This document shows positions 5,005-27,126 of a stretch of 61,030 bases of DNA, in pieces; position 1 is the first letter of the stretch; the number at the start of each line of letters is the position of its first letter. Source of the stretch: a virus (lineage: Duplodnaviria; Caudoviricetes). Where the stretch lies: IMG/VR virus record IMGVR_UViG_3300030099_002804, positions 1 through 61,030 of that record; one strand, given 5' to 3'. A program made the position numbers and the translations under genes. Below the pieces are notes generated by a model, which worked only from the letters and a program-made list of their open reading frames with translations, searched no databases and was not told where the DNA came from.

Positions 5005-5454
5005 TCACTTCTTTTTCTGAACAGGCTTTAGAGTAGCGACATTCAAATCGCCTCTTAGTTTATCCATTTCCTGTGAATGCTCTTGAGCCATTTGTGCAAG
5101 AAGGTGCTTGTGCTTTTGCTCTAACTTCTCTAATTCAATTACATGCTCTTTGTGCGCTCCGTCACGCTCTCGCTCATGCTTTAATTCAATAGGGATATTG
5201 TCAACTTCTTGAGTCTGCTCAGACTCCCACATACGCAACACAGTTTGTAATGCAGGTGCCGCAGTTCCGCCAATAATAGCGATAAGTGCAATAAATCCAT
5301 CAAGATTCATCAACACAACATCGGGTTTCCATATACCCATAGCAACCACTGAACCACAGGCCATAAGCCATAGATAGATTGCTGGTATAACTGTGCGCTT
5401 TACCATACGGTCGTTAAACGACTGATTCTTTTTATTCTTCATTTGTTTCACCAT
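5005..5454 (-). CDS. two-TM membrane protein with coiled-coil tail (holin-like)
   Basis: Two hydrophobic segments followed by a charged His/Glu-rich helix. Confidence 0.5.
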   Translation of the reverse strand: MVKQMKNKKNQSFNDRMVKRTVIPAIYLWLMACGSVVAMGIWKPDVVLMNLDGFIALIAIIGGTAAPALQTVLRMWESEQTQEVDNIPIELKHERERDGAHKEHVIELEKLEQKHKHLLAQMAQEHSQEMDKLRGDLNVATLKPVQKKK

Positions 5455-6832
5455 CCAAGTTTTCGGGCTTATTCTCGTTTTGCCGAGGCATCTCTCCCAT
5501 ACCGGTCTTAGTCGGAGCCTTGTATCTTTGTTTGCCTAACTCGGGCGACTCTCTCGGTAGGTCTAATTGCATACGGGCTTCGTTTAGGGTAGTAATACCT
5601 GCTTCATAAGCCAACACGGTTCTTCGAGTTGTTTCAAACGGCGATTCTTCATCCATAGGGTCAAACTCCAATTTTGGTATATCTCCTTTTCGATGAGGGA
5701 TGCCTAGCAATTCTAAGTGCTTAGAGAATAAGCGTTGAATAGACTGTCCTAAAATTGTTTGTAATCTGCGGATAGATTGCACCGACCACTGAGAAGCGTT
5801 AAATGTTGCGGCAAAGGTTGAACCACGCTCTTGACCCATAGAAACTCTAGGGACATGAAGCACTGCTGAAATGTCTGCGTTAACATTGTCTAGGAATGTT
5901 GAATTATCCGGCACTGTATTTTTCAAATCCACGAACTCCATATTAACATAATGCGGTAGGATAGGCACTTGGTCTGAGCGTAGTCCATCAAGAAGGGAAC
6001 CAACACTATCCATGATATGCTCAAGGCGTTCTGCGGCTTCATCGGGGTCTTGGATATTCTCAATAGCCTCGGGGCCAATAGTAATGTATTGTTTTGTCAG
6101 ACTATCTTCAAGTGCGATACGGTTATTCATACTGTTATACTTAGCACGAATCGCTTGTTTTAATGCGGAGAAGCGGGATGCTCCCCACACACCGTATGTC
6201 CAGCGACCCATTCTATCCATATACCAGTGAGAACGATAGTCAATCTTAATGTGCATGATTTCTTTTACAGAATACTTTGCTTTGTTTGGTGCGTTTTCCT
6301 TGTACAAGTAAAACTTAGGTTCATAGATAGCGTATTCTTTTGTAGCCGAGAATGGTATCTTTCTATCATCAACAATAGTAACTTGGCTAACAGGTAGTGA
6401 TTGAATAGCGGTTATACCAATCCCCGATTTACCTACCAATTTGTTAATATCATTTCCATAAACCATCAAATTACGCATGGCATTTATCAGGAAATCGTCG
6501 AAATCAAGAACATCTTCTGTCAAATCTTTGATTGCGCTTCTAATCTGAGCGTTGCGCCCACCAATTAATCGGTATTTGTTAGCGGTTAGTGCTATAGTCC
6601 TAACTGCTCCGTTCAACTCGGGGTCAAAGTTTAGCATGTCATCGTATAAATCAAACTCATTTGTATTGTTAAATGTAGTTTGGGTCATATCCTCAGTATC
6701 TTTTACGATATTACTAATACTAGCCGACATAATTTCAAATGGACTTTTCATTCCTTTACCAGTAGTAATCTTAACCGGTACTGGTTCTGCCGCCACGACA
6801 GAAGTTTTTTTGAAAGGGTTCCACCATGCCAT
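5432..6832 (-). CDS. portal protein
   Basis: 466 aa downstream of terminase, with motifs LMVYGN, EIMHIK, WGASRF, ALHVP-like and GITTLNEAR. Confidence 0.85.
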   Translation of the reverse strand: MAWWNPFKKTSVVAAEPVPVKITTGKGMKSPFEIMSASISNIVKDTEDMTQTTFNNTNEFDLYDDMLNFDPELNGAVRTIALTANKYRLIGGRNAQIRSAIKDLTEDVLDFDDFLINAMRNLMVYGNDINKLVGKSGIGITAIQSLPVSQVTIVDDRKIPFSATKEYAIYEPKFYLYKENAPNKAKYSVKEIMHIKIDYRSHWYMDRMGRWTYGVWGASRFSALKQAIRAKYNSMNNRIALEDSLTKQYITIGPEAIENIQDPDEAAERLEHIMDSVGSLLDGLRSDQVPILPHYVNMEFVDLKNTVPDNSTFLDNVNADISAVLHVPRVSMGQERGSTFAATFNASQWSVQSIRRLQTILGQSIQRLFSKHLELLGIPHRKGDIPKLEFDPMDEESPFETTRRTVLAYEAGITTLNEARMQLDLPRESPELGKQRYKAPTKTGMGEMPRQNENKPENLDGETNEE

Positions 6833-6998: not shown

Positions 6999-8516
6999 TC
7001 ACAACCTAACATATTTACTCGATGATGGTCTGCGTTTATTAGTTTTTGGGTTCTTTTTATTCTTAGACCAGCCACCCATGCTGGTTGTTTTAGAAATCAT
7101 AGGCATTTGGTCGTTTTGCTTTGGTTTGAATTGGTCTATGGCATGTGCTAATGCCATAACTGTATCGTTATGTTTTCCAACATCAACAATCTCGCCGTTT
7201 TTCCAAACATGAGCCTCTAACTCATCGAGAATAATGTTGACCTTTTTCCTAGTAGCGTCATCTCCATAGGGGAATACTACTAACTTGCGCTCAAACCAAA
7301 CACGCAAGCGGTTCATTAGCCCTTGTTTGAGTCCTTTGTTGGATGCTTTGGATGGGCGATAGTCTAAGTGTCCCCCTTTTTGCTCTATGACTGTTTGGTA
7401 TAGTCGCTGAAAACCTACATCTTCAGCCGCAACTGGGGCACCGTAGTGTTTTGCCCACTCGATAATTGTGTCTGCTTGCCTATCCGGCGGGAAATCATTT
7501 TTGCGCCACATATCAACAAAATGAATATACCCCTGTTCATCTTGACGCAAACATATTAAGACGGAGTAATCTTTGCCTATACCATGAGCAGGGTCGAAAC
7601 CGAGGATGAAACGGGAACCATCGTGGAGTTGACCGTCGAAACCACTAATGGCTCCTATGTCTATGTGTTCTCGGATGAGGTGCCTGTTGAAAACTTGGGA
7701 GTCATCATCCACGACCTTGCACAAATACTCCTGTGCGAAAGCGAGGTCATCGTCTATGCTGATTTTTTGTTCCAACAAAAACTCGGTGGGTCTAAACTCG
7801 GGCCACAGTGGCAGTAGTGGGATATTATCGGGGTCGGCTCTATGCTCATCCCAATTGGGAAACGCAGACCACACGCCGGATTTCCAAACCTGCTTTGCTT
7901 TTTCGGATAGCATTTCAGTATGGTACAGGTCGGTATGAGACATTGGTGTGCCTACACAAAATAGTGATGTACCGGGGTCAAGCATAGGGGTTACTACCTT
8001 CTTAAACCATTCAGCAACGGTGTCCATAGTCATGTCACCCATTTCAGCGAGGACATCATCAAGTGCTACTACGGCTGGGTGTTCTCCACGAATAGCAGAA
8101 CCTACACCGGTCGCTTGAATCCAAGCCCCGTTAGTAAATTGAATCCTTTGTTTGTTAGAACGCTTATCATCAAGATACTTTCGTAATTCGGGATGGCGGC
8201 GCATATCCGTTTTAATTTCCTCAAGACGGTTTGTAGCCTGTCGTATGCTGGCCGAAAATAACCATATTTCCATAGGTTGCCCGTGTCTTTGCTCGAATAG
8301 ACACATATGTAGCAGTTTTACTCGGAGAGTAGCCGATTTACTGTGGGAGCGAGGAGCGATAATGCAGACACGGTGGACTTGGGCACCTTTACGATTGCCG
8401 TATAATTCCATCCACTCATCTATGTGGTCTGCCCACTTGTATTCGGGCGAGAGCCACTCATAGAAATGTTTAATGTCATGGCGTGAACGCTCGAAGTTAA
8501 AGTTGGGCATTACCAT
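6999..8516 (-). CDS. terL: terminase large subunit
   Basis: Walker A variant APRSHSKS, IRG, Walker B VVALDD, GTP motif, RNase H-like GFDPA and HNDTVMALA. Start set at the TAATG overlap with the upstream ORF. Confidence 0.92.
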   Translation of the reverse strand: MVMPNFNFERSRHDIKHFYEWLSPEYKWADHIDEWMELYGNRKGAQVHRVCIIAPRSHSKSATLRVKLLHMCLFEQRHGQPMEIWLFSASIRQATNRLEEIKTDMRRHPELRKYLDDKRSNKQRIQFTNGAWIQATGVGSAIRGEHPAVVALDDVLAEMGDMTMDTVAEWFKKVVTPMLDPGTSLFCVGTPMSHTDLYHTEMLSEKAKQVWKSGVWSAFPNWDEHRADPDNIPLLPLWPEFRPTEFLLEQKISIDDDLAFAQEYLCKVVDDDSQVFNRHLIREHIDIGAISGFDGQLHDGSRFILGFDPAHGIGKDYSVLICLRQDEQGYIHFVDMWRKNDFPPDRQADTIIEWAKHYGAPVAAEDVGFQRLYQTVIEQKGGHLDYRPSKASNKGLKQGLMNRLRVWFERKLVVFPYGDDATRKKVNIILDELEAHVWKNGEIVDVGKHNDTVMALAHAIDQFKPKQNDQMPMISKTTSMGGWSKNKKNPKTNKRRPSSSKYVRL

Positions 8517-8662
8517 TATCGCACCACCCTCATGTTGCCGCAATAAACTGTGCGCTTTTGTTTTGGACACCATTTGGTGCATGAAGTGTAACAGGCGTTT
8601 GCTTCACGACCACAGTTGTTACATTTGCGTAACTTTCTATGGAATCTGTGTCCTCCAGCCAT
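8516..8662 (-). CDS. small Cys-rich zinc-finger protein (48 aa, not in ORF track)
   Basis: MAGGHRFHRKLRKCNNCGRE...YCGNMRVVR, with a GAGGAG RBS, translationally coupled to terL. Confidence 0.5.
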   Translation of the reverse strand: MAGGHRFHRKLRKCNNCGREANACYTSCTKWCPKQKRTVYCGNMRVVR

Positions 8663-8664
8663 AC

Positions 8665-10032
8665 TTACTCCTCATGGACTACTGGTGCGAATAGAGAACC
8701 GATGTAGCCCTCCTTTTCGTCAATTAGATATGCGGCCAAACCTGCGGTGCTGGTAGTGTAACCTGCTCTTGCGTGGTATCTGTCGTGACCTGCAAGGGAT
8801 GGCATCTGTACAATTAGGCATCCGTCTTTTTCAGTTAGGCGTTGGTGGTGAAGGTGTCCGTGGAACCATACTCTATGGTCTGTCTGTCCCCACTGCTTCT
8901 TTGCTTCGTTAGCCATTAGCCCAGCAAGGCTATTGGTCTTTTTGAGTCCGTCACCGTGGGTGAATCCAAGCAGTGTTGAACCGTACACTAGGTAACGGCG
9001 GTTAAAGGAGGATATGGTAATTGTGACATCATCACAACCTTCGTATGCCGCAGATAGGTACATCATTAGTGCGATAGTGGAATGACGGTCGTGATTACCA
9101 GCCATCATTACTACTTCGACAGGTGCGATTTGTCGCATCAAGTCAATGTGTTCTCGGGCTAACTTGCATCCGGTAATAAGGATTTCAGCAGGGGAACCAC
9201 ACATATCTTGCAGTGTGCCTTTTGTGGTGGTGCCTTGGTCGTTATCAACATGGAACCAATCGGAACCAGCACCGACATAGATTTTTTCGGGAGCAGATGG
9301 GATTCTGCTAACGAGGCTTTCGGTCTTTTCCATTAGACGCTTTCGTGCCTCCTCGAAGTTGTATGTCTCGCCTACTTCATCCTCCCAGCCGTGTTTTCCC
9401 CAATGGAAATCGGTAGGGCATACTACTAGAGCGTATGGTGACGGGGCCACAGGTAATTTTAGTTTCGGCACTTTAAATGCGGCTTTTGGTAGGTCTTTGA
9501 GATAGTTTAGTTTCCACTCAAGGTCACGCCACTTAACCGCATCTTCTTCGAGTGCCTTGCGTTCACGCTTGTATATTTCCTGTGCGGCATTGTGTTTGCG
9601 CTGGGATAGCAAGTCCTCAATGTGTTGCTCGGGTTCATCGAGCAGTTGCTCGTTAGATAGCGGGACTGTGGAGTGTGTTACTTTGTGCGCTCTTTTCCAA
9701 GCCAAGAAGTGTTCAACGGGCATATCGTATTTGATTGCCATTTCGGAGGCGGTCAACGGGGTGCCGTCAAAACCGGAGTAGTCACGGAGCATGGCTCGGT
9801 GCTTTTCACCGGACATGCTGATGTCCCCAAAGGTAAGGGCCGTAATGTATGTGTCGGAGGACTCGTCGTAGGAGTATGAATCGTCTTTGACTTCGCTCTC
9901 GTAATTGATTAGGCGCATCTCCCACGCCTTCACTGTTGAGTCGGGGTAGTATTGGTTTAGTAGTCGTGCGTAGCCGATTCTGCTACCGGGGTGTTCATCC
10001 ATGTGCTTTAGTATCGTGTCTTGATGGGACAT
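8665..10032 (-). CDS. calcineurin-like metallophosphoesterase with N-terminal extension
   Basis: Motifs DFHWG, GSDWFH, GNHD, HGD and GHLH in canonical order. Confidence 0.85.
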   Translation of the reverse strand: MSHQDTILKHMDEHPGSRIGYARLLNQYYPDSTVKAWEMRLINYESEVKDDSYSYDESSDTYITALTFGDISMSGEKHRAMLRDYSGFDGTPLTASEMAIKYDMPVEHFLAWKRAHKVTHSTVPLSNEQLLDEPEQHIEDLLSQRKHNAAQEIYKRERKALEEDAVKWRDLEWKLNYLKDLPKAAFKVPKLKLPVAPSPYALVVCPTDFHWGKHGWEDEVGETYNFEEARKRLMEKTESLVSRIPSAPEKIYVGAGSDWFHVDNDQGTTTKGTLQDMCGSPAEILITGCKLAREHIDLMRQIAPVEVVMMAGNHDRHSTIALMMYLSAAYEGCDDVTITISSFNRRYLVYGSTLLGFTHGDGLKKTNSLAGLMANEAKKQWGQTDHRVWFHGHLHHQRLTEKDGCLIVQMPSLAGHDRYHARAGYTTSTAGLAAYLIDEKEGYIGSLFAPVVHEE

Positions 10033-10195: not shown

Positions 10196-10396
10196 TCAAT
10201 TCCTCAAGTCAAGAATCCACTTTGCAGCGTCTGAAGTGCCCCAGTTATCCGGTAGCATCTCAAACGGTACACAGCACCCAAATCCAAGGTTGGCCTTGGT
10301 TGCTAGTTTCTCTCCTACAATCTTCAGTGTACCACATCTGATACACCTAATCATGTTCGTCTTGTACATCTCTCTCAATTCTTTGTTACTTATCAT
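10196..10396 (-). CDS. small Cys-rich hypothetical protein
   Basis: CIRC motif, GGAGG RBS, abuts the upstream ORF. Confidence 0.5.
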   Translation of the reverse strand: MISNKELREMYKTNMIRCIRCGTLKIVGEKLATKANLGFGCCVPFEMLPDNWGTSDAAKWILDLRN

Positions 10397-10594
10397 TCAA
10401 TTCTCCTCCATCTGAATGAACACATTGTCATCATCACTGATGACGAATAATACGCCACCGTGACAACGGCATCGTGCCCCGTCTTTGTTCTTCTTTACAT
10501 AATTCAGTCCACACATTGAGCAGACTTCGCTTAGTTGCTTGGTTCCTCGCACCATGCTACCCCGTATGCACCTACCCTTATCAATACTGCCCAT
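10397..10594 (-). CDS. small Cys-rich hypothetical protein
   Basis: CSMC...CRC motifs. Confidence 0.5.
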   Translation of the reverse strand: MGSIDKGRCIRGSMVRGTKQLSEVCSMCGLNYVKKNKDGARCRCHGGVLFVISDDDNVFIQMEEN

Positions 10595-10656
10595 GTTTGC
10601 ACCACATAGACCACGATTTCAAGACCTAATCCAAATCACCACGAAATCAGACAATC

Positions 10657-10729
10657 AACATATATCAGTAAGGTACTGCCCGCAAACTCAATAATAGAGA
10701 GAGAAAAAGAAAAGGAGAGAGAGGGGGGA
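10657..10729 (+). repeat. oriented intergenic repeat, copy 1
   Basis: ATATATCAGTAAGGTACTGCCC...CTCAATAA followed by a GA-rich tract. Confidence 0.85.
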
Positions 10730-10780
10730 GCCCCCGCCACCGGCGAACCGGTGACGAGGGCAAATCACTGATTGCTCAGT
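10730..10780 (-). ncRNA. conserved 3' two-hairpin RNA element, copy 1
   Basis: ACTGA-GCAA-TCAGT, then GCCCTCGTCACCGG-TTCG-CCGGTGGCGGGGGC, then a pyrimidine tract. Confidence 0.6.
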
Positions 10781-10958
10781 TACCTAGGATTTCAACCCAT
10801 AGGTTGTTTTTTTGCCAGCAATAGGCACAATAGAACGCCTGTCTAGGTTTTGCGTTCTGTGTGTGTGCTTCTTGGATAGTGGCTAGGTGCTTGTTCTCAT
10901 CACCTACCATTCTCCAATTACATGTCCCACAGTATTCGCAGGTTGTTATTTCAGCCAT
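10776..10958 (-). CDS. small zinc-finger protein
   Basis: CEYC...CAYC, GGAGGTGA RBS, own TATA box (TTTAATA). Confidence 0.7.
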   Translation of the reverse strand: MAEITTCEYCGTCNWRMVGDENKHLATIQEAHTQNAKPRQAFYCAYCWQKNNLWVEILGN

Positions 10959-11054
10959 TTATTTCTCACCTCCTGTTGTTCCTCAACAATCTATCCGAGG
11001 AGTAGTCCCCTATTAAACCCAGCGATTGAGCAAATCAGACATGCGGTAGTTATG

Positions 11055-11117
11055 ATATATCAGTAAGGTACTGCCCCCGGCTCAGTAATAGAGAGAAAAA
11101 AAGAAAGAAAAGAGAGA
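11055..11117 (+). repeat. oriented intergenic repeat, copy 2
   Basis: ATATATCAGTAAGGTACTGCCC (22 nt identical to copy 1)...CTCAGTAA followed by a GA tract. Confidence 0.85.
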
Positions 11118-11168
11118 GCCCCCCAGTGGAGCGAACTCCACTGAAGGGCGGCTTACTGATTATTCAGT
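11118..11168 (-). ncRNA. conserved 3' two-hairpin RNA element, copy 2
   Basis: ACTGA-ATAA-TCAGT, then GCCCTTCAGTGGAG-TTCG-CTCCACTGGGGGGC. Confidence 0.6.
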
Positions 11169-11195
11169 TATACAATACTGCAACAATTGATTGAA

Positions 11196-11438
11196 TCAAT
11201 TGTAACTCTTCACTAGATGATGAGCGAACTTAGGCCACTTGTACACAAACTCAAATGGGTTTGTGTTCCAAATGTACAATTGCTCCTTCTGATAACCGCC
11301 GTAGCAGTGCTGAGGGTACATTGAAGCCCACTCAGCCAAAAATTGTTCATCTGTCATGTTACTCCTAACAACCGCCAACGCCTTGAACGCTGATTGGCTG
11401 ATATTGTAATCGCCGTTGGTCCATATCCTGTATGTCAT
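11196..11438 (-). CDS. hypothetical protein
   Basis: GGAGGTGA RBS before MTYRIW, upstream TATATATA box. Confidence 0.65.
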   Translation of the reverse strand: MTYRIWTNGDYNISQSAFKALAVVRSNMTDEQFLAEWASMYPQHCYGGYQKEQLYIWNTNPFEFVYKWPKFAHHLVKSYN

Positions 11439-11607
11439 ATTTTTCACCTCCTTGTTTGACGCTTCGTTCATTCTATTATCCACCATACGCTTCGCCTCTT
11501 TGACTCACTTCATCCTCTATCTGATTTCCGTATTGGTCATACTAACAGGTATGTTGTATATATACCCTTCTCGAAATCATCACCAAAATGCTCATTCAAT
11601 CAATACA

Positions 11608-11682
11608 ATATATGTTAGTAATACTTCCCTCTCGTCTTAGTAAGAAAAAAAAAGAGAGAGAGAGAGTTAATCGTGGTACTGC
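11608..11682 (+). repeat. oriented intergenic repeat, copy 3 (diverged)
   Basis: ATATGTTAGTAATACTTCCC...CTTAGTAAG, GA tract, then GTACTGC. Confidence 0.7.
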
Positions 11683-11743
11683 GTGGCATTTTTCATTTTC
11701 CACGGTTGGCCGTGAAATCCAGCCGTGGGTTTATGTACTACCA

Positions 11744-11910
11744 CCTGCTCGTCGGTGTATATCCGAGCAACGATAACCGGTAATCAGCAATCACACGAAA
11801 GTTGGTTTGACAGGTTGTTTGGAACGAAACTGGTAACAGAACGGGGAGCAACCCCGATGTCAAAAGCAGGATGTTTCTCCCATGAGTCCAGCGAGACAAT
11901 TCATGGAGAC
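11744..11910 (+). ncRNA. structured 5' leader
   Basis: Stems CCTGCT/AGCAGG, TTTGACA/TGTCAAA, CGGGG/CCCCG, and TCTCCCATGA/TCATGGAGA covering the RBS. Confidence 0.4.
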
Positions 11911-12604
11911 GAACATGATACACGAAAAGGAGGAAACAGTTGGAGTGATTCGACGCACCATCAACGCATTGTTGTTGGCCGTCATTCACATGTTGGGCTA
12001 CCAACAACCAACTGCGACCTTAGCAAGCAAGATGAAACAACTGGACCACCTATACACTGAGTATTTGGACCACTGTGCAACCGACTGGGTTGGATTCAAT
12101 CCACCCAGCAAGCGAACACAGACCATCCTCAGAAACAAGTGGATTAAAGTGATGAACCAACTTGCCAAGCAAATACTGAAGGAACTGGTCAAAATTGACT
12201 GTTCCTACTGTGGACTTGGTAATGTGTCTGAAAGTGACAAATGCGCCGGTCGAAAGGTCGGCAGTGGATTTGAAATCCAAGCATGGCAGAAGTCACCAAA
12301 GGCACCTAGAGTTTGGGTACTTGACACCGAAGAACACTGGATTAGACCTTGGGAGTCAGAATCCGGCGACTGGGAGTTTGTCGAGGAATCCGGGCACTGG
12401 GAATGGGGTAAATTGTACCTACCAGCACAGGGCAACTGTGCAGTAGGTCACGGACCCTACGAAGGTTCAGATAGACCAATGCACAACGCATTGGCTCATC
12501 TTGACAGTGAATCAGCACAACTGGTGCTGAATCACTTGGAATACGGCGACATTCCTAGCCGAATCCGAGTGGCACTAAACGAACTGGTTTCAGACCGAGT
12601 TTGA
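11882..12604 (+). CDS. hypothetical Trp-rich protein (likely start 11915)
   Basis: 240 aa ORF with own TATA box and terminator, CSYC motif. Confidence 0.7.
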   Translation: MSPARQFMETNMIHEKEETVGVIRRTINALLLAVIHMLGYQQPTATLASKMKQLDHLYTEYLDHCATDWVGFNPPSKRTQTILRNKWIKVMNQLAKQILKELVKIDCSYCGLGNVSESDKCAGRKVGSGFEIQAWQKSPKAPRVWVLDTEEHWIRPWESESGDWEFVEESGHWEWGKLYLPAQGNCAVGHGPYEGSDRPMHNALAHLDSESAQLVLNHLEYGDIPSRIRVALNELVSDRV

Positions 12605-12605
12605 T

Positions 12606-12725
12606 ACTGAGTAATCAGTTATTTGCCCTCCCCAGCACTTCGGTGCTGGGGAGTGGCTCCCTTTCGGGGGTGTCCTAGGCGAAGAAGCCGGGGCACCCCC
12701 ACCCCTTTTTATTATTTTTTTTATT
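12606..12725 (+). terminator. conserved 3' two-hairpin RNA element copy 3, extra GC hairpin and T tract
   Basis: ACTGA-GTAA-TCAGT, CTCCCCAGCAC-TTCG-GTGCTGGGGAG, GGGGGTGTCC/GGGCACCCCC, then poly-T. Confidence 0.7.
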
Positions 12726-12727
12726 TG

Positions 12728-12797
12728 AACATATATTAGTAAGGGTACTGCCCGCACTCAGTAAAAAAAAGAGAGAGAGAGAGAGAAGAGAGAGAGG
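12728..12797 (+). repeat. oriented intergenic repeat, copy 4
   Basis: AACATATATTAGTAAGGGTACTGCCCGCACTCAGTAA followed by (GA)n. Confidence 0.85.
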
Positions 12798-12811
12798 CGG
12801 CTTTCATTCTC

Positions 12812-13252
12812 TCAATTTACTCCCTCCAAATACATATCATAGGTGAAAGTCTGAGGGGGAAACACTCCATGCTTATCTAAGTATAGAGCCTGTTCTGCCG
12901 TTTCAATGTGCATGATACGCTTCAAGGTGTTAAGTCCTAGAATATCACAAATCTCGCCTTGAATCCTTGATGCTTTCAATTCACCCTCTAAAGTGAACGG
13001 GCAGTCATATTTTAGGTGTATAGTGTCATGTAATGCCCTAAATAGGATATTGAAGGGCGCACTGCCCCATATAGTTGAATGACTCTCTCCGCCCCATATC
13101 GGCATGGGTAACATTTTGTTATATGCCTCAATGACGGGCTCAAATCCCCTATCCTCAATTGTGACATAGAAGGGGTACACCCCGACATAATCACAGACCT
13201 TGAGAAGTCCGTTTTGTACTGCTTGCGTTAGTTCGGTAGGTATTGCGACCAT
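12812..13252 (-). CDS. hypothetical protein with FRALHDxxH...GE motif (possibly metal-binding or zincin-like)
   Basis: FRALHDTIHL...FTLEGE. Upstream CGCTGGGTT+TATA element is shared with the 10776 unit. Confidence 0.6.
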   Translation of the reverse strand: MVAIPTELTQAVQNGLLKVCDYVGVYPFYVTIEDRGFEPVIEAYNKMLPMPIWGGESHSTIWGSAPFNILFRALHDTIHLKYDCPFTLEGELKASRIQGEICDILGLNTLKRIMHIETAEQALYLDKHGVFPPQTFTYDMYLEGVN

Positions 13253-13313
13253 GTACCCCCTACGATACCCCACTATATGAACCCAGCGTTTCAGCAAATA
13301 GTCAATGAATCAA

Positions 13314-13382
13314 GTATATATCAGTAAGACTTCACTTATCACGGCTCAGTAAGAGAGAGAGAGAAAAGAGAGAGAGAGAGAA
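13314..13382 (+). repeat. oriented intergenic repeat, copy 5
   Basis: TATATATCAGTAAGAC...GGCTCAGTAAG followed by (GA)n. Confidence 0.8.
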
Positions 13383-13383
13383 C

Positions 13384-13416
13384 CCTATCATGAACGGCTT
13401 TACCTATCATGAACGG
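13384..13416. repeat. 14 bp direct repeat CCTATCATGAACGG x2 (possible operator)
   Basis: Exact copies at 13384 and 13403, upstream of the amidoligase unit promoter. Confidence 0.7.
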
Positions 13417-13514
13417 GCCGCCGACCCCCTCTCGGCGGGTGTTTTTTGACCCCCTTGAGTATTTAAAGAACCGAACATGTTCGTTAATTCTTTATACCAA
13501 CAGGGGGTATTCCG

Positions 13515-13900
13515 AGATTGCCCGCAAGGGCCGAAGCAATCGGACGCACATCCGAATTGAGGGAACCCCACTCAACCAAGCGCAAGTGCGGGGGGTTGTC
13601 GCTCTCAACACAAGTCCTACGGTGAAAATCCGTAGGCACCCTAGGTATCGCCACAGGCCTCAGTCGCTAGGGATAGGAGGACATGATTACTCACCATGTC
13701 ACCATGTCAATTCGAGCGTTTAGCCTTGGCATGATACGGTCTGAAGGACCACGCTATGTTCCAACATGGGACCTCATGAATCCTCCTTCGTTCTTTTTTC
13801 AAATCCTATTCACCTAGATTGAGGAGATGCAATTCAATGATTCAATCAATCCAACTCCCTGTCCGACGATATACAAAGTCGGGTCACAGGCGAGGAGCGT
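13515..13900 (+). ncRNA. long, densely structured leader or ncRNA
   Basis: At least eight consecutive hairpins after a TTTATA box at ~13492. Confidence 0.5.
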
Positions 13901-13909
13901 GAAATGTAA

Positions 13910-16432
13910 ATGCAAACAACAACAACAACAGGAAATATACTGTTGGACCTAGTTGTGGTATTGTTGGCACTATTGCCAATTATGATGCCACTTCTTGCTG
14001 TCCTAACAGTACTGAGAAATGAACGAATGAACATGCGAATAGGTCTTGAGATTGAAGCAATCAAGAAGGCCCACATTCGTGAGTCACCACATGAGAAGAT
14101 GGCACACTGGATAATGAAGTGTGATGAGAAGATGTTGAAACTAATGTCCTCTCGAACACGGAAAACCATTCGTGCCCTCAAAGTCTCATTCCGTGGCTAC
14201 ACTCACGAAGTCATGAGCGAAACGAAGATTGTCACAGACTCATCATTGAGTCGTGGCGGCTTTGAGATTGTGTCACCCCCACTAATCGGGCGTGGCGTGG
14301 TTATGTCGTGGATTAGTCGGATGATGTCACACCTTCGAGGCGTGGCTGAAGTCGATAGGTCATGCGGCCTTCATGTCCATGTGGGTCTGAAGGACTACGG
14401 CGCAAGGGCAAACCCCGTCGAGTTAGGCTTTACCGAGCCTTCAGACAACCTTAGTCCCGAGGACTACGCCAAGGCCGTTACAGGCCGTGTGGCGTGGGCT
14501 TACGGGTACTTTCAACATGCAATCAATCTGATTGTTAGCCCAAGCCGCCGTGACGGTGAATGGAGCCGTAATGTCTCCTACATCAGCCAACAATATCGCA
14601 ACCCAAGCGAAGTACGCTTCGCCCAGCGAAAGTGGAATGATGAACATGGAATGTATGTCCGAGAATGGCATACCGAAACCGACCCCGCAAAGGTTGGCAT
14701 GGTATTCTATGACCGACTGTACGAAGGTAATCCCGACTACGGTGACTCTCGCTATCAGTGCGTAAATCCTCAATCACTACCGAAATACGGTACGATTGAG
14801 TTTAGAGCGCACCAAGGCACCACAAACGCAACCAAGATTCAGAATTGGGTGCAATTTTTGCACCTACTGGTCAGCCGTTGTGCGAGTAACTATTGGACCG
14901 ACATCACCAATTTCCGTGGTGACTCAATCCATGACCTATTCACTTGGCTTGGTTTGGCAGACGATGACCCACTCTATGTGGCTATGGTTCGCCGTATCAA
15001 GGCACTGAATGGAAACAACCCTAGTGTATTCCGTAATGACCCAATCTTGGCACACAACGCACTTTTCAAGGAGAGCGTAGTTTGCTCCCGATGTGGTTCG
15101 GCTTCTTGTGACTCAGATGAAGTGTGTGGCACCAACTACACACAAGATTTGATGGAGGAAACCGAGGCTCACTTTTTGGACTTGGATAGGGCATGCGATA
15201 CATGTGGCACATTACTTCGGGAAACCGAAGCACACATGCGCTATGACTACGGCGACCATCATGAAGCACACTGCCCTAACTGCGGCGATATGAGAGTGTT
15301 CAACGCTATGGGAGGAGTTATCCTCTCAGTCATGCTTGGCACCCTACCACTCGCACTGGTTATTGTAGGATGTGGCATTGGTGCCATACATGCGGCGGCT
15401 AAGACCTTCAAGGCCAAGCGATTGTCAACTAGACTCTTCAAGGCATTATCAGCCCGAGGCAAACAAGCCTCGGGCTTTGCCTTTGAGAATGGAAAGGGAG
15501 TGTACTATGTGAAAGCACCACACTCCTCAATCGCTATGGCTCACCATGTCCCGAAGCAACTACGCAAGCAAACTCAGTGGAGTATGTTTCACACCCGCTT
15601 CGCAACTCATGGTGCCAACAACAAGGCAAACGCTCACCCTCACTTTGGTCGCAAGGCTAAGGTAACGCTAGTACACAACGGCGTCGTACACAACCACGAC
15701 GATGTATGGATGGCATTGGGCGAGAAGCCTACTGGCCCTGTGGACTCACAGGCCGTAGCACAGTGCCTAGAAGTTGGTGGTATCGAGAAGGTAGTCGAGT
15801 TATGCAAGGGCTCAATGTCCTTGATTTGGTCTGATAATCGTGACCCACAAGGTACCCTCAAGTGCTGGACTAATGGAGGCAATCCATTGGTTATGGGTCG
15901 CATAGACGACGCAAGCAACGGCCCCGTAGTAATTGCCTCAACTGAGGCACTACTCAAGGAGGGATGTGGCAAGCGACTCAAGACACATTGGGATGCAACC
16001 ATAGGGCGTGAATACACAATCTCGCCTACCGGTAGCATCAGCAAGCGTGACATCGAGGGCAGTGAAGCAACCGCCGGGGTCGTCTATGATTGGCGCACCT
16101 ACAAGGTCGATGACTACTACTACACCTACGGCGCAAACTACTCGACTACCAAGACCAAGAAGCGACACCTACCTTATCGCATCAAGCAAATTGCGAAGAA
16201 GGAGTTAGAGCGCCTTGGTAGTTGGGAGCCAATCGAAGGCAAATGGGATGGCTTCGACCTTCATACCTTCAGTGGCATCCACGCCGCTAAATGGGATAAG
16301 GATGGCAAGCCCTTGACCTACGCACTACCGCAGTACATCAACCCGATGCACTATGATAGTGACCTTGAGGAGATACTCATGGGGTCGCACAGACCCGATG
16401 AGTTGGACTCATGCACATATGAGGCCCCTTGA
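13910..16432 (+). CDS. amidoligase (COOH-NH2 ligase, GS fold) fused to class II (Ntn) glutamine amidotransferase
   Basis: Ligase motifs GLEIE, DSSL, FEIVSPPL, SCGLHVHVG, TIEFRAHQGT. GATase motifs CGI, RG..ASG, HTRFATHG, NAHPH, HNGVV, VDS. Confidence 0.85.
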   Translation: MQTTTTTGNILLDLVVVLLALLPIMMPLLAVLTVLRNERMNMRIGLEIEAIKKAHIRESPHEKMAHWIMKCDEKMLKLMSSRTRKTIRALKVSFRGYTHEVMSETKIVTDSSLSRGGFEIVSPPLIGRGVVMSWISRMMSHLRGVAEVDRSCGLHVHVGLKDYGARANPVELGFTEPSDNLSPEDYAKAVTGRVAWAYGYFQHAINLIVSPSRRDGEWSRNVSYISQQYRNPSEVRFAQRKWNDEHGMYVREWHTETDPAKVGMVFYDRLYEGNPDYGDSRYQCVNPQSLPKYGTIEFRAHQGTTNATKIQNWVQFLHLLVSRCASNYWTDITNFRGDSIHDLFTWLGLADDDPLYVAMVRRIKALNGNNPSVFRNDPILAHNALFKESVVCSRCGSASCDSDEVCGTNYTQDLMEETEAHFLDLDRACDTCGTLLRETEAHMRYDYGDHHEAHCPNCGDMRVFNAMGGVILSVMLGTLPLALVIVGCGIGAIHAAAKTFKAKRLSTRLFKALSARGKQASGFAFENGKGVYYVKAPHSSIAMAHHVPKQLRKQTQWSMFHTRFATHGANNKANAHPHFGRKAKVTLVHNGVVHNHDDVWMALGEKPTGPVDSQAVAQCLEVGGIEKVVELCKGSMSLIWSDNRDPQGTLKCWTNGGNPLVMGRIDDASNGPVVIASTEALLKEGCGKRLKTHWDATIGREYTISPTGSISKRDIEGSEATAGVVYDWRTYKVDDYYYTYGANYSTTKTKKRHLPYRIKQIAKKELERLGSWEPIEGKWDGFDLHTFSGIHAAKWDKDGKPLTYALPQYINPMHYDSDLEEILMGSHRPDELDSCTYEAP

Positions 16433-16484
16433 GCCAAGTGTTCATTCGTGACAACACAAGATACGACACACAGATGTCGAAGCC

Positions 16485-16710
16485 GGATTGTGGGGGGCCT
16501 CGGCCCCCCGCAATCCTCCCCCCTAGCATTACAACACTCCTCACCTATCACAATCACACTTACCACGCTTCTCTTAGAGGCGAGCCGCCTAGACAAGTGC
16601 GGGGTATCAAATCGGTCTAGCCACTGGAGTTTTCATCTCCTTTTCCAGTGGTTTTGGGATGTCGAGGCCCGTTCATAGCCTCGGCATCCCTCCTACTCCC
16701 TTGGAGGCAT
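16485..16710 (+). ncRNA. structured intergenic RNA
   Basis: Long hairpins at 16485-16516, 16589-16620, 16620-16651 and 16656-16690. Confidence 0.45.
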
Positions 16711-16714
16711 TACC

Positions 16715-16954
16715 ATGAGCGATAAACCGACCATGAAGTATTGTCCCCACATCGAATGTGGTGGTAAATTACAACCGCATTCATTTGACTCGGCAACGGG
16801 TTGCTTGGACTGTGATGGCCCATGCTCCCCCCGCCGTGTTCAGATGTGGCGAGACAATTTGAAGCAACCAACCGAGGAACCCGAACCTAGACTGGTCTAT
16901 CAAGGACCAGTTACCAAGGAGGTTTGGGAGGGCTTGTGCTACTGGAAACAGTGA
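16715..16954 (+). CDS. small Cys-rich protein
   Basis: CPHIEC...CLDCDGPC, GGAGG RBS. Confidence 0.6.
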   Translation: MSDKPTMKYCPHIECGGKLQPHSFDSATGCLDCDGPCSPRRVQMWRDNLKQPTEEPEPRLVYQGPVTKEVWEGLCYWKQ

Positions 16955-17051
16955 ATGCACAGTCCACTCGAATAGAGGATGGCGGTGGCCTACAACCCAC
17001 CCCTTCAGATGGCATGAGGTAGCCAACCCGGACTGAGTGACAAACCGGCAA

Positions 17052-17130
17052 ACACACAAATGGGGTCGCCCTTCGGGGCGGCTCCAAATATGTGTGTTTT
17101 TTTTATTTTTTTTATTTTTTTTTATTTTTA
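17052..17130 (+). terminator. UUCG hairpin and long T tract terminator
   Basis: GGGGTCGCCC-TTCG-GGGCGGCTCC nested in ACACAC/GTGTGT, then ~30 nt of T. Confidence 0.75.
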
Positions 17131-17136
17131 ATGTAC

Positions 17137-17430
17137 ATTAGTAAGACTATAGTCTTACTGCATAAAAGAGAGAGAGAGAAAGTTGAGAGAGAAAGAGAGA
17201 GAAGTAAAGAGAGAAAGGGGGAGAGAGAGCATTAGTAAGACGAGAGAGAGAGGCGCATGTGAAAGAGAGAAGAGTTAAATAGTGGAGAGAGAAGTCTTAC
17301 TTAGTAAGACGAATGAATTGGCGAGAGAGTCGCTATGAAAAAGCCTTAGTAAGACGAAAAGAAGGAAAAGTATATAGCGAGAGAGAGAGGCTAAACGGTG
17401 TACTGCGAGCCTGTCGAGAGAATAGAGAGC
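17137..17430 (+). repeat. oriented repeat copy 6, expanded cluster of TTAGTAAGAC boxes in a GA-rich tract
   Basis: TTAGTAAGAC at 17138, 17232, 17301 and 17346. Palindromes AGTAAGACTATAGTCTTACT and GTCTTACT-T-AGTAAGAC. GTACTGC at 17400. Confidence 0.8.
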
Positions 17431-17669
17431 CAAAAAAACTGTCAATGCGTATGGAATGGAGTAGGTAAATCAGGTGTTTCCAGCAACACCTACTGTTATC
17501 TGCTACCACCTACATTCAAGTAACAACTCCGGCAAAAATCACAATATCCGGCAGTGCCAGCCGACACGCCCACAACGCCAGCCGAAACACGCACCGCTAA
17601 ACGCACCCCTGCTCGGCCATTCACCTATCAACATTCATATACTCACCCCCGATTCTTGCCACCACCAAC

Positions 17670-17695
17670 TTGATATACCGGCGGCCCCATATTAG
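17670..17695 (+). promoter_or_regulatory. class I (early) viral promoter
   Basis: TTGATATA-CCGGCGGCCCC-ATAT. Confidence 0.65.
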
Positions 17696-17715
17696 AACCA
17701 ACGGAGGCAACCAAC

Positions 17716-17871
17716 ATGGTAACGAAACAACAACTACAAAACATGCTTGACGAAACGATTGAAGAATTACAGAAGCCGAATGCGGCTATGCAGTTTCAGC
17801 GATATAGGCAACTGATATTCCACAGGGCCAACTTGGAAATGAAACTGAGGGACATGGGGGAATCACAATGA
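17716..17871 (+). CDS. small helical protein (51 aa, not in ORF track), paralog of 18068..18226
   Basis: MVTKQQLQNMLDETIEELQ, GGAGG RBS. Confidence 0.65.
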   Translation: MVTKQQLQNMLDETIEELQKPNAAMQFQRYRQLIFHRANLEMKLRDMGESQ

Positions 17872-18071
17872 ACCAAGAAGCAGATATGAAACGAAGCACA
17901 CAAAGGATGCTGGAAATTATACGAACCTCGGGGCGCAAGAAGTTTAGTTACACTGATGTTGATTGCGTGGGATGCGGTGAAAAAATCAGCATTTACAACT
18001 ACCACCTTTGGAGGCAGACACCTTGCTCATGCGAGGACAAGAAGGCACTTTTCGTGGAGGAATCACAATGA
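17868..18071 (+). CDS. small zinc-finger protein
   Basis: CVGC...CSC, ATGA overlaps on both sides. Confidence 0.6.
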   Translation: MNQEADMKRSTQRMLEIIRTSGRKKFSYTDVDCVGCGEKISIYNYHLWRQTPCSCEDKKALFVEESQ

Positions 18072-18226
18072 GCCAACTAAAGCAACTACAACTACTGCTT
18101 GACGAAACGAATGAGCGATTGCAGAACACAAGTGCGCCATACCAAAGCCACGAATACCTGCAACTATTAGCATACAGGTGTGAATTGTGGCGCAAAATAG
18201 ATGACCTAACGGAGGGATTGGCATGA
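18068..18226 (+). CDS. small helical protein, paralog of 17716..17871
   Basis: MSQLKQLQLLLDETNERLQ. Confidence 0.65.
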   Translation: MSQLKQLQLLLDETNERLQNTSAPYQSHEYLQLLAYRCELWRKIDDLTEGLA

Positions 18227-18333
18227 AAATTAGAGTGCCTACAAAGATTTGGTGCGCTTGGCTGGTCTTGACCCTGCCAATCGCCGTAATCAACCTACTG
18301 CTCTATATCACAGGTGTCGTGGAGGTCGGCAAC

Positions 18334-18357
18334 TATAAATAGGGGCGGCCCCATATA
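18334..18357 (+). promoter_or_regulatory. class I viral promoter
   Basis: TATAAATA-GGGGCGGCCCC-ATAT. Confidence 0.75.
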
Positions 18358-18385
18358 CAGACTGAAGCAACCGGAGAGGAGCAAC

Positions 18386-18550
18386 ATGGAATACAACAGA
18401 AAAAACAACGGACAATTCGACACCCCACAAAAGGTGTCATACCAATGCGAAGAATGCAATCACCAGCATATCGGATTTGAAATACATGGAATGAGAATTA
18501 CATGCCCCGAGTGTGGGTTCTCATTTGTCGTGGGGGTTGACGACCAATAA
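18386..18550 (+). CDS. small zinc-ribbon protein
   Basis: CEEC...CPECG, GAGGAG RBS. Confidence 0.65.
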   Translation: MEYNRKNNGQFDTPQKVSYQCEECNHQHIGFEIHGMRITCPECGFSFVVGVDDQ

Positions 18551-26021: not shown

Positions 26022-26028
26022 CTTTGAC

Positions 26029-26273
26029 TGAATTAATTTTATTATTTCAGTAACTACAAAATTAATTAAATGGGGCACTGCTCGCATGTTGGCCGAATTA
26101 ATTTATTTCTTCAAAGGCATTTATACAAAGGGGCGTAATACTATACTACTAACCTATGATATATACTTAATATAATGTTAAATGTTCTAAGGGAAATAAA
26201 TTAATTAGCGCAATATCCACGCAGTAATTCGTTTATTTAATTTTACGATTACAAAATTAATAGAATTAATTCA
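26029..26273. repeat. AT-rich ~245 bp imperfect inverted repeat, candidate replication origin
   Basis: Arms 26029-26123 and 26179-26273 are reverse complements with mismatches, rich in AATTAATT, upstream of the MCM-like operon. Confidence 0.65.
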
Positions 26274-26301
26274 ACAACAGTTAAATACTGACGACGGATT
26301 A

Positions 26302-27126
26302 GTGATTATTATGAGAACGAAGTACGATACAATAGACATATACCACGACGAACCGCTACCAAAACTAGGCGGTGTAGTGGTATTTACTGAGAATGAATAC
26401 GGAATGGCATCACTGTTGGCAGGGACAACTATCATTGGTGATAGGGAACCCGATGCAATAGTGATGAGTCATCTTCTGAGCGAGTTGGCTTTCAACGCCG
26501 CACCGAAGATGGCTAGAGTAGGTTGGGAAATCTATTTTGAAAAGAACCATGCTGGTGATACCATAGCATTTGTTATGCTCACCAACTGGCCTAATGTTCA
26601 ACTGTTCCCGCCGGAATCAAGCAAGGCTACATGGATTTACACATACCCTACTGTTAGGGATTTGGTGATTAGCCTACAGGAATTAGGCGCAGAAGAGTTG
26701 CGCTTTTTGTCAAGCACCACTATACATGAGGCTCTTGACAATGATACCTACGCCCTGCTCTCTCCAAAGACCATAAAGAATTATGTGTATGGTAGTGACA
26801 GTAACGAGGATGATAACCTATTCTTCTCTCCGCCAACATGGTTATTCCCATACTTGGCGCACAAGATAGGTTACGATAGAGCCGAGATTATCATGTCCGG
26901 TTGTGATGATGATAAGAAGGTTGATGATGTGGCGGGCTGGACTTTGGCTGGCTACTTATCTGACTACATGGGCAACAAGTTACTCAAGCGTGACTACAAC
27001 AAGATAGTCAAAGACTTCAACAAACTCATGCAAAAGCATGAGAAGATGCACGATGACATGGTTGAGAACATGAAGGCAGTTAGTGAGGCACAGACTATGG
27101 CACCAAGCGAACATATGTGGGGTTGA
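26302..27126 (+). CDS. hypothetical alpha/beta protein, weakly PAC2 (proteasome assembly chaperone)-like
   Basis: GMASLLAG..II and LQELGAEELRFLS segments recall the PAC2 family. Weak. Confidence 0.4.
   Translation: MIIMRTKYDTIDIYHDEPLPKLGGVVVFTENEYGMASLLAGTTIIGDREPDAIVMSHLLSELAFNAAPKMARVGWEIYFEKNHAGDTIAFVMLTNWPNVQLFPPESSKATWIYTYPTVRDLVISLQELGAEELRFLSSTTIHEALDNDTYALLSPKTIKNYVYGSDSNEDDNLFFSPPTWLFPYLAHKIGYDRAEIIMSGCDDDKKVDDVAGWTLAGYLSDYMGNKLLKRDYNKIVKDFNKLMQKHEKMHDDMVENMKAVSEAQTMAPSEHMWG

Follow-up and report, generated by a model that had tools for sequence, protein, structure and literature searches.

The stretch of DNA analysed here (hereafter the window) comprises the whole IMG/VR record IMGVR_UViG_3300030099_002804, 61,030 bp in length, and belongs to a tailed virus, as is evident from its terminase, portal, tape measure and tail tube genes. 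It harbours a strand-locked, conserved family of intergenic punctuation elements, six in number, which combine an AT-rich box, YAGTAA-type boxes and a tract composed of G and A only (GA tract). With slightly less than even confidence, these elements are read as compound strand-polar cassettes, in which a terminator of leftward transcription would be fused to a promoter and leader of rightward transcription, the whole doubling as a recombination seam.

The initial annotation had proposed six such elements, all facing the same way, and both a motif scan and a profile built from relatives recovered each of them where it had been placed, every one on the + strand. In the window, the combination ATAT..YAGTAA occurs solely on the + strand, at 10660, 11055, 11610, 12731 and 13316; the copy at 17137, the sixth in order, deviates from this form and carries four TTAGTAAGAC boxes (17138, 17232, 17301 and 17346). 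Purine-only tracts of at least 18 nt number eight in the entire window, all of them on the + strand within 10696-17229, with none on the - strand. The motif model suggested in that annotation was realised as a profile hidden Markov model (HMM) trained solely on 25 elements of the relatives L004-L007. It gave six matches in the window, all intergenic and all on the + strand, with E-values from 1.9e-10 to 8.1e-6, the next match having an E-value of 0.78. The sequence TATATYAGTAAG has four exact matches compared with approximately 0.015 expected by simple arithmetic, while the 12-mer box at up to two mismatches stays at background level (13 matches versus 11.3 in shuffles). Since the short box alone is at background, it is the composite element that constitutes the distinctive unit. 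The second YAGTAA box described earlier was likewise found, at an offset of 22, 22, 22 and 25 nt from the first box in elements 2-5, respectively, its place in element 1 being taken by CAATAA at +23. GTACTGC indeed accompanies five of the copies, namely elements 1, 2, 3, 4 and 6 (10673, 11068, 11676, 12745 and 17400), and is absent from element 5.

Element 1 (10660-10730, +, E = 6.1e-06) is made up of ATATAT, CAGTAAG, GTACTGC, the box-like CAATAA and a GA tract at 10696-10730. The tract is abutted by the 3' module of the leftward gene 10776-10958 (10731-10780, -), which contains the stop-codon motif ACTGA..TCAGT and a GC hairpin with a UUCG loop; the predicted dG of this hairpin is -26.7 on the - strand and -18.5 on the + strand. 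Element 2 (11055-11118, +, E = 3.7e-08) has the order ATATAT, CAGTAAG, GTACTGC, CAGTAA and GA tract (11090-11118), and is followed by a terminator-like hairpin of the leftward gene 11196-11486 (11118-11149, -) with 14 pairs, the loop TTCG and then TCTCTCTTTT on the - strand. A scan flagged 11149-11118(-) as terminator-like. In element 3 (11610-11666, +, E = 1.5e-07), ATATAT, TAGTAAT, TAGTAA and a GA tract (11642-11666) are followed downstream by GTACTGC (11676) and a run of five T on the + strand (11689-11693). Element 4 (12731-12797, +, E = 8.2e-08) consists of ATATAT, TAGTAAG, GTACTGC, CAGTAA and a GA tract at 12763-12797, and lies between the T-run terminator of a + strand gene and the stop codon of the - strand gene 12812-13252. 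The former is part of the 3' module of the rightward gene 11882-12604 (12606-12727, +), which includes the stop-codon motif, two hairpins with UUCG on the + strand, and T-runs. Element 5 (13316-13382, +, E = 1.9e-10) contains TATATAT, CAGTAAG, CAGTAA and a GA tract (13351-13382), after which two direct CCTATCATGAACGG boxes and a hairpin with a T6 run (13418-13447) occupy 13384-13448 on the + strand. The sixth copy is an array (17137-17430, +, E = 8.1e-06) comprising a palindromic AGTAAGACTATAGTCTTACT, the four TTAGTAAGAC boxes, inverted GTCTTAC copies, GA tracts at 17164-17229 as well as shorter ones, and GTACTGC at 17400. Merging into it is the terminator of the rightward amidoligase unit (17060-17136, +; read directly), a UUCG-loop hairpin followed by approximately 50 nt of T-runs.

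The genes flanking the elements are arranged as had been described, i.e. tandem-minus at elements 1 and 2, divergent at 3 and 5, convergent at 4 and tandem-plus at 6. It had been argued from this variety that the copies cannot all be simple terminators or promoters. The argument holds for single-function signals only, since two context groups account for all six: elements 1, 2 and 4 lie just downstream of the 3' end of a leftward gene, where a terminator reading fits, and elements 3, 5 and 6 lie upstream of rightward genes, where a promoter or leader reading fits. Within the first group, elements 1 and 2 abut the hairpin of the leftward gene and element 4 does not. The proposed location of this strand-locked family at the junction of the genome arms agrees with the map of open reading frames (ORFs) and the GC skew: leftward genes extend from ∼10.6 kb down to position 1 and again from 61 kb down to 42.9 kb, the rightward arm spans ∼17.7 to 42.9 kb, and the repeat island between them is both the divergence point of the arms and the site of the cumulative GC-skew minimum (12-14 kb).

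Conservation was assessed among relatives confirmed in IMG/VR by their exonuclease (223 in total). GA tracts, which are pyrimidine tracts on the exonuclease strand, are present in 21 of the 80 exonuclease loci kept, many of which lack the relevant flank. All seven loci with at least 80% exonuclease identity have them, as do several at 57-63%, yet L021 and L034 have full flanks and no GA tracts, and among the 48 loci at or below 55% identity the tracts occur solely in L036, L057 and L074, one or two in each. The orientation, too, is shared by the relatives. In the window and the 21 loci taken together (22 sequences, 405,492 bases), 114 GA tracts were counted versus 4 CT tracts, the latter being weak (16-19 nt) and situated outside the islands; in two whole relatives, G001 and G002, forward and reverse purine 20-mers number 62/0 and 65/0, respectively, all within the islands. 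Across clades the architecture is kept as an AT-rich stretch, a box, a G+C-richer spacer of 10-20 nt and a GA tract of 16-46 nt (median 25), and although this architecture and its polarity stay, the box sequence differs from clade to clade. All 31 elements of the close clade have (T)ATAT or CAT followed by YAGTAA, 25-39 nt (median 29) before the tract; the conserved portion there runs from the AT box to the tract and the left flank is unconserved. The boxes of elements 4 and 6 are intact in the window, L004, L005 and L006, and the hairpin with T6 that follows element 5 is kept in the same four sequences. According to maps read by eye, all 14 islands have an element 0.4-1.2 kb ahead of the amidoligase gene (element 5 type), 12 of 13 have an element array behind it (element 6 type), and the element 3 type is found before a 240-aa rightward gene.

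Two further features considered as parts of the element were discarded. One was a conserved small inverted repeat past the first box: some copies show it clearly (element 6 with 10 pairs), but the mean length of the best stem is 4.84 pairs in 95 elements and 4.38 in shuffled sequences, and the counts of G·T versus A·C extensions of the small stems (99 versus 71) do not decide the strand. The idea of a central A-run or mirror repeat was dropped because runs of at least four A occur in only 57 of 111 tracts and are not central. A generic GA-tract pattern run against IMG/VR matched at least 120 stretches; among the matches listed most were unrelated, including giant-virus records. The island of L021, a relative devoid of GA tracts, contains (GT)n-type repeats.

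On the leftward side, a strong hairpin (dG ≤ -12) was found within 48 nt after 57 of the 93 element clusters, TTCG on the - strand being its commonest loop (32 loops). For the 54 hairpin-bearing tracts, the gap between tract and hairpin is 0 in 31 cases and at most 2 nt in 39, and the hairpin is stabler as - strand RNA in 50 (mean difference 5.1 kcal/mol). This abutment and the - strand stability indicate that the hairpins are part of leftward transcripts and that the tract, read leftward, is their C/U tail. The tail is a mixture of C and U, with a run of at least four U in 33 of the 54. Both rightward units of the window end in + strand UUCG-loop hairpins followed by T-runs (12606-12727 and 17060-17136). 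The 3' module at 10737-10780, belonging to a leftward gene, is an inverted copy of the one at 12606-12649, belonging to a rightward gene (44 nt, 77% complementary); hence the gene-end module flips with the orientation of its gene, whereas the core element never does.

On the rightward side, ATATAT and a second YAGTAA box situated 22 to 25 nt from the first would place a transcription start at or just before the GA tract. In the close clade, the geometry of the AT box and second box fits that between an archaeal TATA box and its start site, from which we infer promoter activity and its direction. Elements that have no abutting hairpin are followed within 120 nt by a + strand run of at least five T in 22 of 41 cases, those with a hairpin in 8 of 52, the background being 2.06 such runs per kb, or ∼22% per 120 nt. 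Where rightward genes follow, the succession of a GA tract and conserved + strand T-runs suggests transcripts with a GA leader. A 20-mer shared by two leftward genes may provide these with promoters of their own. One copy (11016-11035, -; AACCCAGCGATTGAGCAAAT on the + strand) stands beside a TTTAATA box upstream of the leftward gene 10776-10958 and is a candidate cassette-own promoter, the TATA reading being made by eye; the other (13280-13299, -), identified partly by eye, stands beside TTCATATAG, ∼24 nt upstream of the ATG at 13252 of another leftward gene. Rightward firing of the elements is favoured by the conservation from AT box to tract, by the unconserved left flank and by this upstream 20-mer of the leftward genes.

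Comparison with relatives also bears on the fate of the genes between the elements. The initial annotation had asked whether the repeats persist while the intervening genes vary, and this is what was observed. Over 12 pairs of genomes, the translated similarity of the sub-island covers from 0.00 to 0.86 of its length and does not exceed 0.45 in nine pairs, compared with 0.95-1.00 for the left arm (10 pairs with the full arm) and 0.43-1.00 for the amidoligase gene, while both genomes of all 12 pairs retain 3-7 tracts. The nearest relative, L004, whose arms are 94-95% identical to those of the window, lacks the whole cassette between elements 1 and 2 (10724-11051; a 395-bp cassette). At this place its single element corresponds on the left to window element 1 and on the right to element 2. 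The crossover lies within the ∼27 nt that both share, so that the absence of the cassette is explained by an element 1/element 2 chimera. L004 also carries one additional cassette bounded by elements, and in two cases an ORF body has been exchanged while the flanks on either side are conserved. The tract lengths of close relatives vary in 2-nt steps. The suggestion that the repeats are recombination points for cassette swapping is thus borne out as an evolutionary consequence, with at least one gain or loss whose crossover lies inside the repeat (L004). Homologous recombination between direct repeats leads to same-orientation copies without further assumption.

Under the compound reading, a C/U-only tail, often with an internal U-run, placed against a UUCG hairpin would stop leftward transcription, replacing the T-run of this virus's rightward terminators. 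Rightward transcription would be initiated at the GA tract or immediately ahead of it, giving transcripts with a purine-only leader. At elements 3, 5 and 6 this would amount to a sense promoter and leader, often with a short T-run thereafter (a small RNA or an attenuator), and at elements 1, 2 and 4, behind leftward genes, to antisense or convergent transcripts. A viral regulator would probably bind the first YAGTAAG box, which in element 6 is present in several copies and is palindromic. Recombination between the direct repeats would delete, duplicate and insert whole cassettes, from which both the turnover of the island and the single orientation would follow. Candidate reasons for the tract being purine-only include a polar terminator, a pyrimidine-free RNA leader, a stable purine-RNA hybrid and triplex DNA.

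Several observations weigh against this reading. The tract with its hairpin looks like a terminator of leftward genes, yet in many copies the stop would have to occur at a plain (CU)n tail: runs of at least four A are present in only 57 of 111 tracts and of at least five A in 43, hence a U-run terminator cannot account for every tract. Nor is a strict purine-only composition needed for a terminator, the rightward terminators here using T/A runs. Hairpin-plus-tail terminators are moreover typical of bacteria, whereas the promoter reading presupposes an archaeal host. As the AT box is palindromic, a promoter could also fire leftward, and the window elements would have a sense context in four of six cases if fired leftward but in only three of six if fired rightward. 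In some clades (L024, L027 and L031) the most TATA-like stretch is merely 10-20 nt from the tract, which does not fit one fixed TATA-to-start distance. Finally, by a weak and crude test, homology breakpoints fall in elements in 12 of 73 cases versus 10.6% expected.

A purely leftward function would have the C/U tract and hairpin terminate transcription, the AT box and boxes act as the promoter of the next leftward gene (the boxes being B recognition element (BRE) or activator sites), and the other copies remain as insulators against leftward read-through or as relics. The palindromic AT box would allow this, 57 of the 93 clusters do lie behind leftward 3' hairpins, a leftward gene starts on the AT-box side of four of the six window elements (1, 2, 3 and 5), and no other TATA-like box was seen by eye between element 1 and the start at 10594. 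It is nonetheless an unlikely explanation: elements 4 and 6 serve no leftward gene and still have intact boxes in the four sequences named above, genes 10776-10958 and 12812-13252 possess their own shared promoter-like 20-mer and TATA-like box, the conserved blocks would all be upstream of the TATA with none between it and the start, and the conserved + strand T-runs past the tract would be left unexplained. Known BREs are, besides, purine-rich, and CTTACTR is not. A one-way promoter regulon we consider improbable as well. Its GA leader RNAs would be sense for rightward genes and antisense to leftward cassettes. Those from any element would either pair in trans with the complementary C/U tails ending all leftward cassette mRNAs, silencing the cassettes jointly, or form an R-loop on the pyrimidine template that primes rightward replication. 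Such a regulon would account for the purine-only tract and for the genome-level polarity, and if real it would act across the virus as a switch whose code is base composition, not sequence.

Polarity that is independent of local gene orientation would also be expected of DNA-level replication signals, such as a cluster of origins with iteron-like YAGTAAG boxes next to AT-rich stretches for unwinding, R-loop-primed rightward synthesis, or polar fork barriers or H-DNA at the tracts. Purine-RNA:DNA hybrids and H-DNA are known to form preferentially in sequences with strict purine/pyrimidine strand asymmetry. In element 6, ∼50 nt of 100% A+T adjoin four direct and two inverted boxes, and the island sits at the cumulative GC-skew minimum. 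This minimum is, however, confounded with the switch of transcription direction. Six dispersed origins within 7 kb would be unusual, the association of 57 of the 93 clusters with gene 3' hairpins points to transcription, no initiator protein was identified among the proteins scanned, and the AT-rich repeat region 26022-26310 offers an alternative origin candidate; a replication role is accordingly given a low probability. The elements might, with a similarly small likelihood, be by-products of cassette traffic, spreading together with a gene by homologous or mini-circle integration into resident elements, with the tracts as slippage-prone microsatellites of little function of their own. The chimeric element of L004, the cassette indels bounded by elements, the low sub-island similarity alongside retained repeats and the 2-nt steps in tract length are all compatible with this, and the available text on the promoter-early stem-loop (PeSL) cassettes of phages offers a precedent with mini-circles (PMC2839356). 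However, the architecture and polarity survive to ∼57-62% exonuclease identity despite changed boxes, the same syntenic sites around the amidoligase gene are kept, boxes are conserved where spacers vary, and the gap between hairpin and tract is 0 in 31 of 54; this depth of architecture, synteny, box conservation and abutment indicates selection for function. Strand-specific nicking, packaging (pac) or staged injection, put forward in the initial annotation, would agree with the one-strand polarity and with the distance of only 2-3 kb between the island and the large terminase gene (6999-8582), but is very improbable given that the elements are found solely at the seams between genes within a 7-kb island, in association with gene ends, and that relatives have different contig ends, the window end cuts through a gene and no terminus falls in the island.

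The closest analogues of the elements appear to be the repeats of HF2 and the PeSL cassettes, so that, by analogy, the family may be regarded as a variation on known promoter-repeat and regulatory-cassette systems. As far as the text of the HF2 report goes, the 58-bp and 29-bp intergenic repeats (IRs) of this virus carry promoters of measured activity, with a TATA box starting at -26 and a conserved block at the start site; across the genus they occupy conserved positions, and long counter-transcripts are also present (PMC8707807). The class I and II IRs of HF2/Haloferacalesvirus resemble the present elements in being short, in lying exclusively between the genes of a tailed virus, archaeal in the case of HF2 and probably so here, in having motifs found nowhere but in the repeats, and in keeping their positions across related viruses, the counter-transcripts being a feature of HF2 (PMC8707807). 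Their AT-rich TATA ∼26 nt before a conserved start-site block has a putative counterpart in the AT box and second box of the present elements, with the offset of 22-25 nt in the window, although the AT box of L024, L027 and L031 lies nearer the tract. Compared from that text, the quoted HF2 motifs are by eye unlike YAGTAAG, the described repeats have neither a purine-only tract nor an abutting terminator hairpin, and some are complement copies (IR1c, IR11c and IR12c), whereas all elements here face one way regardless of gene orientation; promoter activity, measured in HF2, is in the present case predicted from sequence. PeSLs are mobile regulatory cassettes in the hyperplastic regions of T4-type phages (PMC2839356). 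In the portions of that paper compared, they share with the elements the organisation of small repeated promoter-plus-terminator cassettes (the promoter part being putative here) between small, mostly unknown genes, and the insertions, deletions and replacements between relatives through recombination at the repeats. They differ in that PeSLs combine sigma-70-like promoters with stem-loops, while in the window sigma-70-like sites are depleted and the AT box fits an archaeal TATA; a purine-only tract and a fixed genome-wide polarity are absent from the PeSL description in those portions.

Other systems are more distant. Intrinsic terminators likewise have a GC-rich hairpin directly before a pyrimidine tail, as at the leftward 3' ends described above (gap 0 in 31 of 54), but the tail here is C/U-mixed and 16-46 nt long, a U-run of at least four is present in only about half of the tracts, and the tract is likewise present at sites other than the ends of leftward genes. 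Integron attC sites are similar in that same-orientation sites bound gene cassettes of changing content; however, the elements have no attC-like long imperfect palindrome, their short inverted repeats barely exceeding shuffles (4.84 versus 4.38), no integrase family was found among the window proteins scanned, and the observed crossover is compatible with plain homologous recombination in the ∼27-nt shared stretch. Element 6, in which a T-rich stretch adjoins 4 direct and 2 inverted boxes, recalls an iteron-type origin, for which no initiator was identified. A literature search found no paper joining an archaeal virus with polypurine, and the portion of the literature on magroviruses and repeats that was covered contained nothing relevant.

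The virus belongs to a large, abundant and wholly uncultured marine clade of tailed viruses, with the 223 exonuclease relatives in IMG/VR mentioned above and hundreds of relatives by family B DNA polymerase (PolB). The proteins of this clade are mostly unannotated, and a conserved punctuation element that is easy to recognise provides a handle on the starts and ends of its transcription units. The element also marks a hyperplastic island that exchanges accessory or host-interaction genes, and offers a regulatory repeat, open to concrete tests, that is oriented with respect to the genome instead of the adjacent gene. Should the purine-only tract prove essential, be it as RNA leader, R-loop or polar terminator, this would amount to a new design principle beyond HF2 repeats and PeSLs.

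The record is classed as linear, with a CheckV completeness estimate of 100%. Protein scans identified on the - strand the portal (5432-6832), the large terminase (6999-8582), a Mre11/SbcD-like exonuclease (8665-10032), the tape measure (49867-53793) and the tail tube (54639-55724), and on the + strand PolB (37151-39397). The window end truncates a gene and near-identical relatives place the island at other coordinates; the record ends therefore look like assembly break points rather than termini, and the records of the virus and its relatives look circularly permuted, with no terminus mapping to the island.

An archaeal host is probable. For the clamp loader the best score is that of the archaeal RFC small subunit (E = 1.8e-42), one nuclease scores as Hef (1.2e-19), and the nearest PolB proteins are those of haloarchaeal tailed viruses at ∼24% identity. 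Sigma-70-like sites are fewer than in shuffles (5 versus 11.5 ± 3.5), which points in the same direction, and none of the five is located at an element in its native orientation. The bacterial-looking hairpin-plus-tail form of the terminators, meanwhile, counts against an archaeal host. Neighbours of the clamp loader in the Atlas fall into viral clusters named in phage style, by which the host is not decided, a protein search yielded hardly any organism names, and a host scan of genome contigs returned a single 2.8-kb contig of a metagenome-assembled genome (MAG) labelled Rhodobiaceae. In the whole window no Rfam family reached its gathering score, the region 10400-17800 giving merely two sub-threshold, chance-level matches, and no tRNA genes were found. 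No RNA runs containing 10400-17700 were listed, one metatranscriptome from a shared sample having ∼0.04 of the words. The viral winged-helix proteins invoked in the initial annotation as possible binders of the repeats could not be recognised: of 24 proteins from the island and the beginning of the right arm, each small or unannotated, Pfam assigned none to a DNA-binding family.

The hyperplastic sub-island (10196-13252) comprises the small cassettes 10196-10396(-), 10397-10594(-), 10776-10958(-), 11196-11486(-), 11882-12604(+) and 12812-13252(-). Most small proteins encoded in 10196-10958, 16715-16954 and 17868-18550 have paired CxxC motifs and are zinc-ribbon-like by eye, with no Pfam match. 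Gene ends in the island share the motif ACTGA-NNNN-TCAGT at or just past the stop codon (10737-10780, 11150-11175 and 12606-12625). It forms a small hairpin with a variable loop, is followed by TTTGCCC and the main hairpin, and contains the letters CAGTAA/CAGTTA as in the boxes.

Between elements 5 and 6 lies a conserved anchor (13910-16432, +) encoding a fusion of an amidoligase and a class-II glutamine amidotransferase. This 840-aa protein is the product of the sole conserved large gene of the island, which is bracketed by GA elements in the relatives examined. Just past the hairpin and T6 run of element 5, at 13456-13485, TATTTAAAG is followed by a perfect 10-bp palindrome, GAACATGTTC; the stretch is kept in L004 and L006 and may represent a second promoter with operator for the amidoligase unit. 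Within the long non-coding leader of this unit (13450-13900), a core at 13585-13685 is conserved at 83-85% amid non-aligning flanks. Its counterparts are L005:6096-6196, L009:7367-7467 and L008:6010-6105, the closest relative, L004, having a different sequence. The hairpins predicted in the core change on both sides, 4 of 16 predicted pairs being compensatory among the four sequences, and had no Rfam match; the core may be a structured leader or a small RNA.

From the element 6 array to the first rightward gene (17430-17700), the + strand is C/A-rich and T-poor and contains a direct repeat, GCCAGCCGACACGCCCAC / GCCAGCCGAAACACGCAC. The AT skew of the genome peaks at 16-22 kb. Further along the rightward arm and apart from the island, an AT-rich non-coding stretch of ∼290 bp (26022-26310) contains at least five copies of an AATTAAT-type motif, making it a candidate replication origin or regulatory region.

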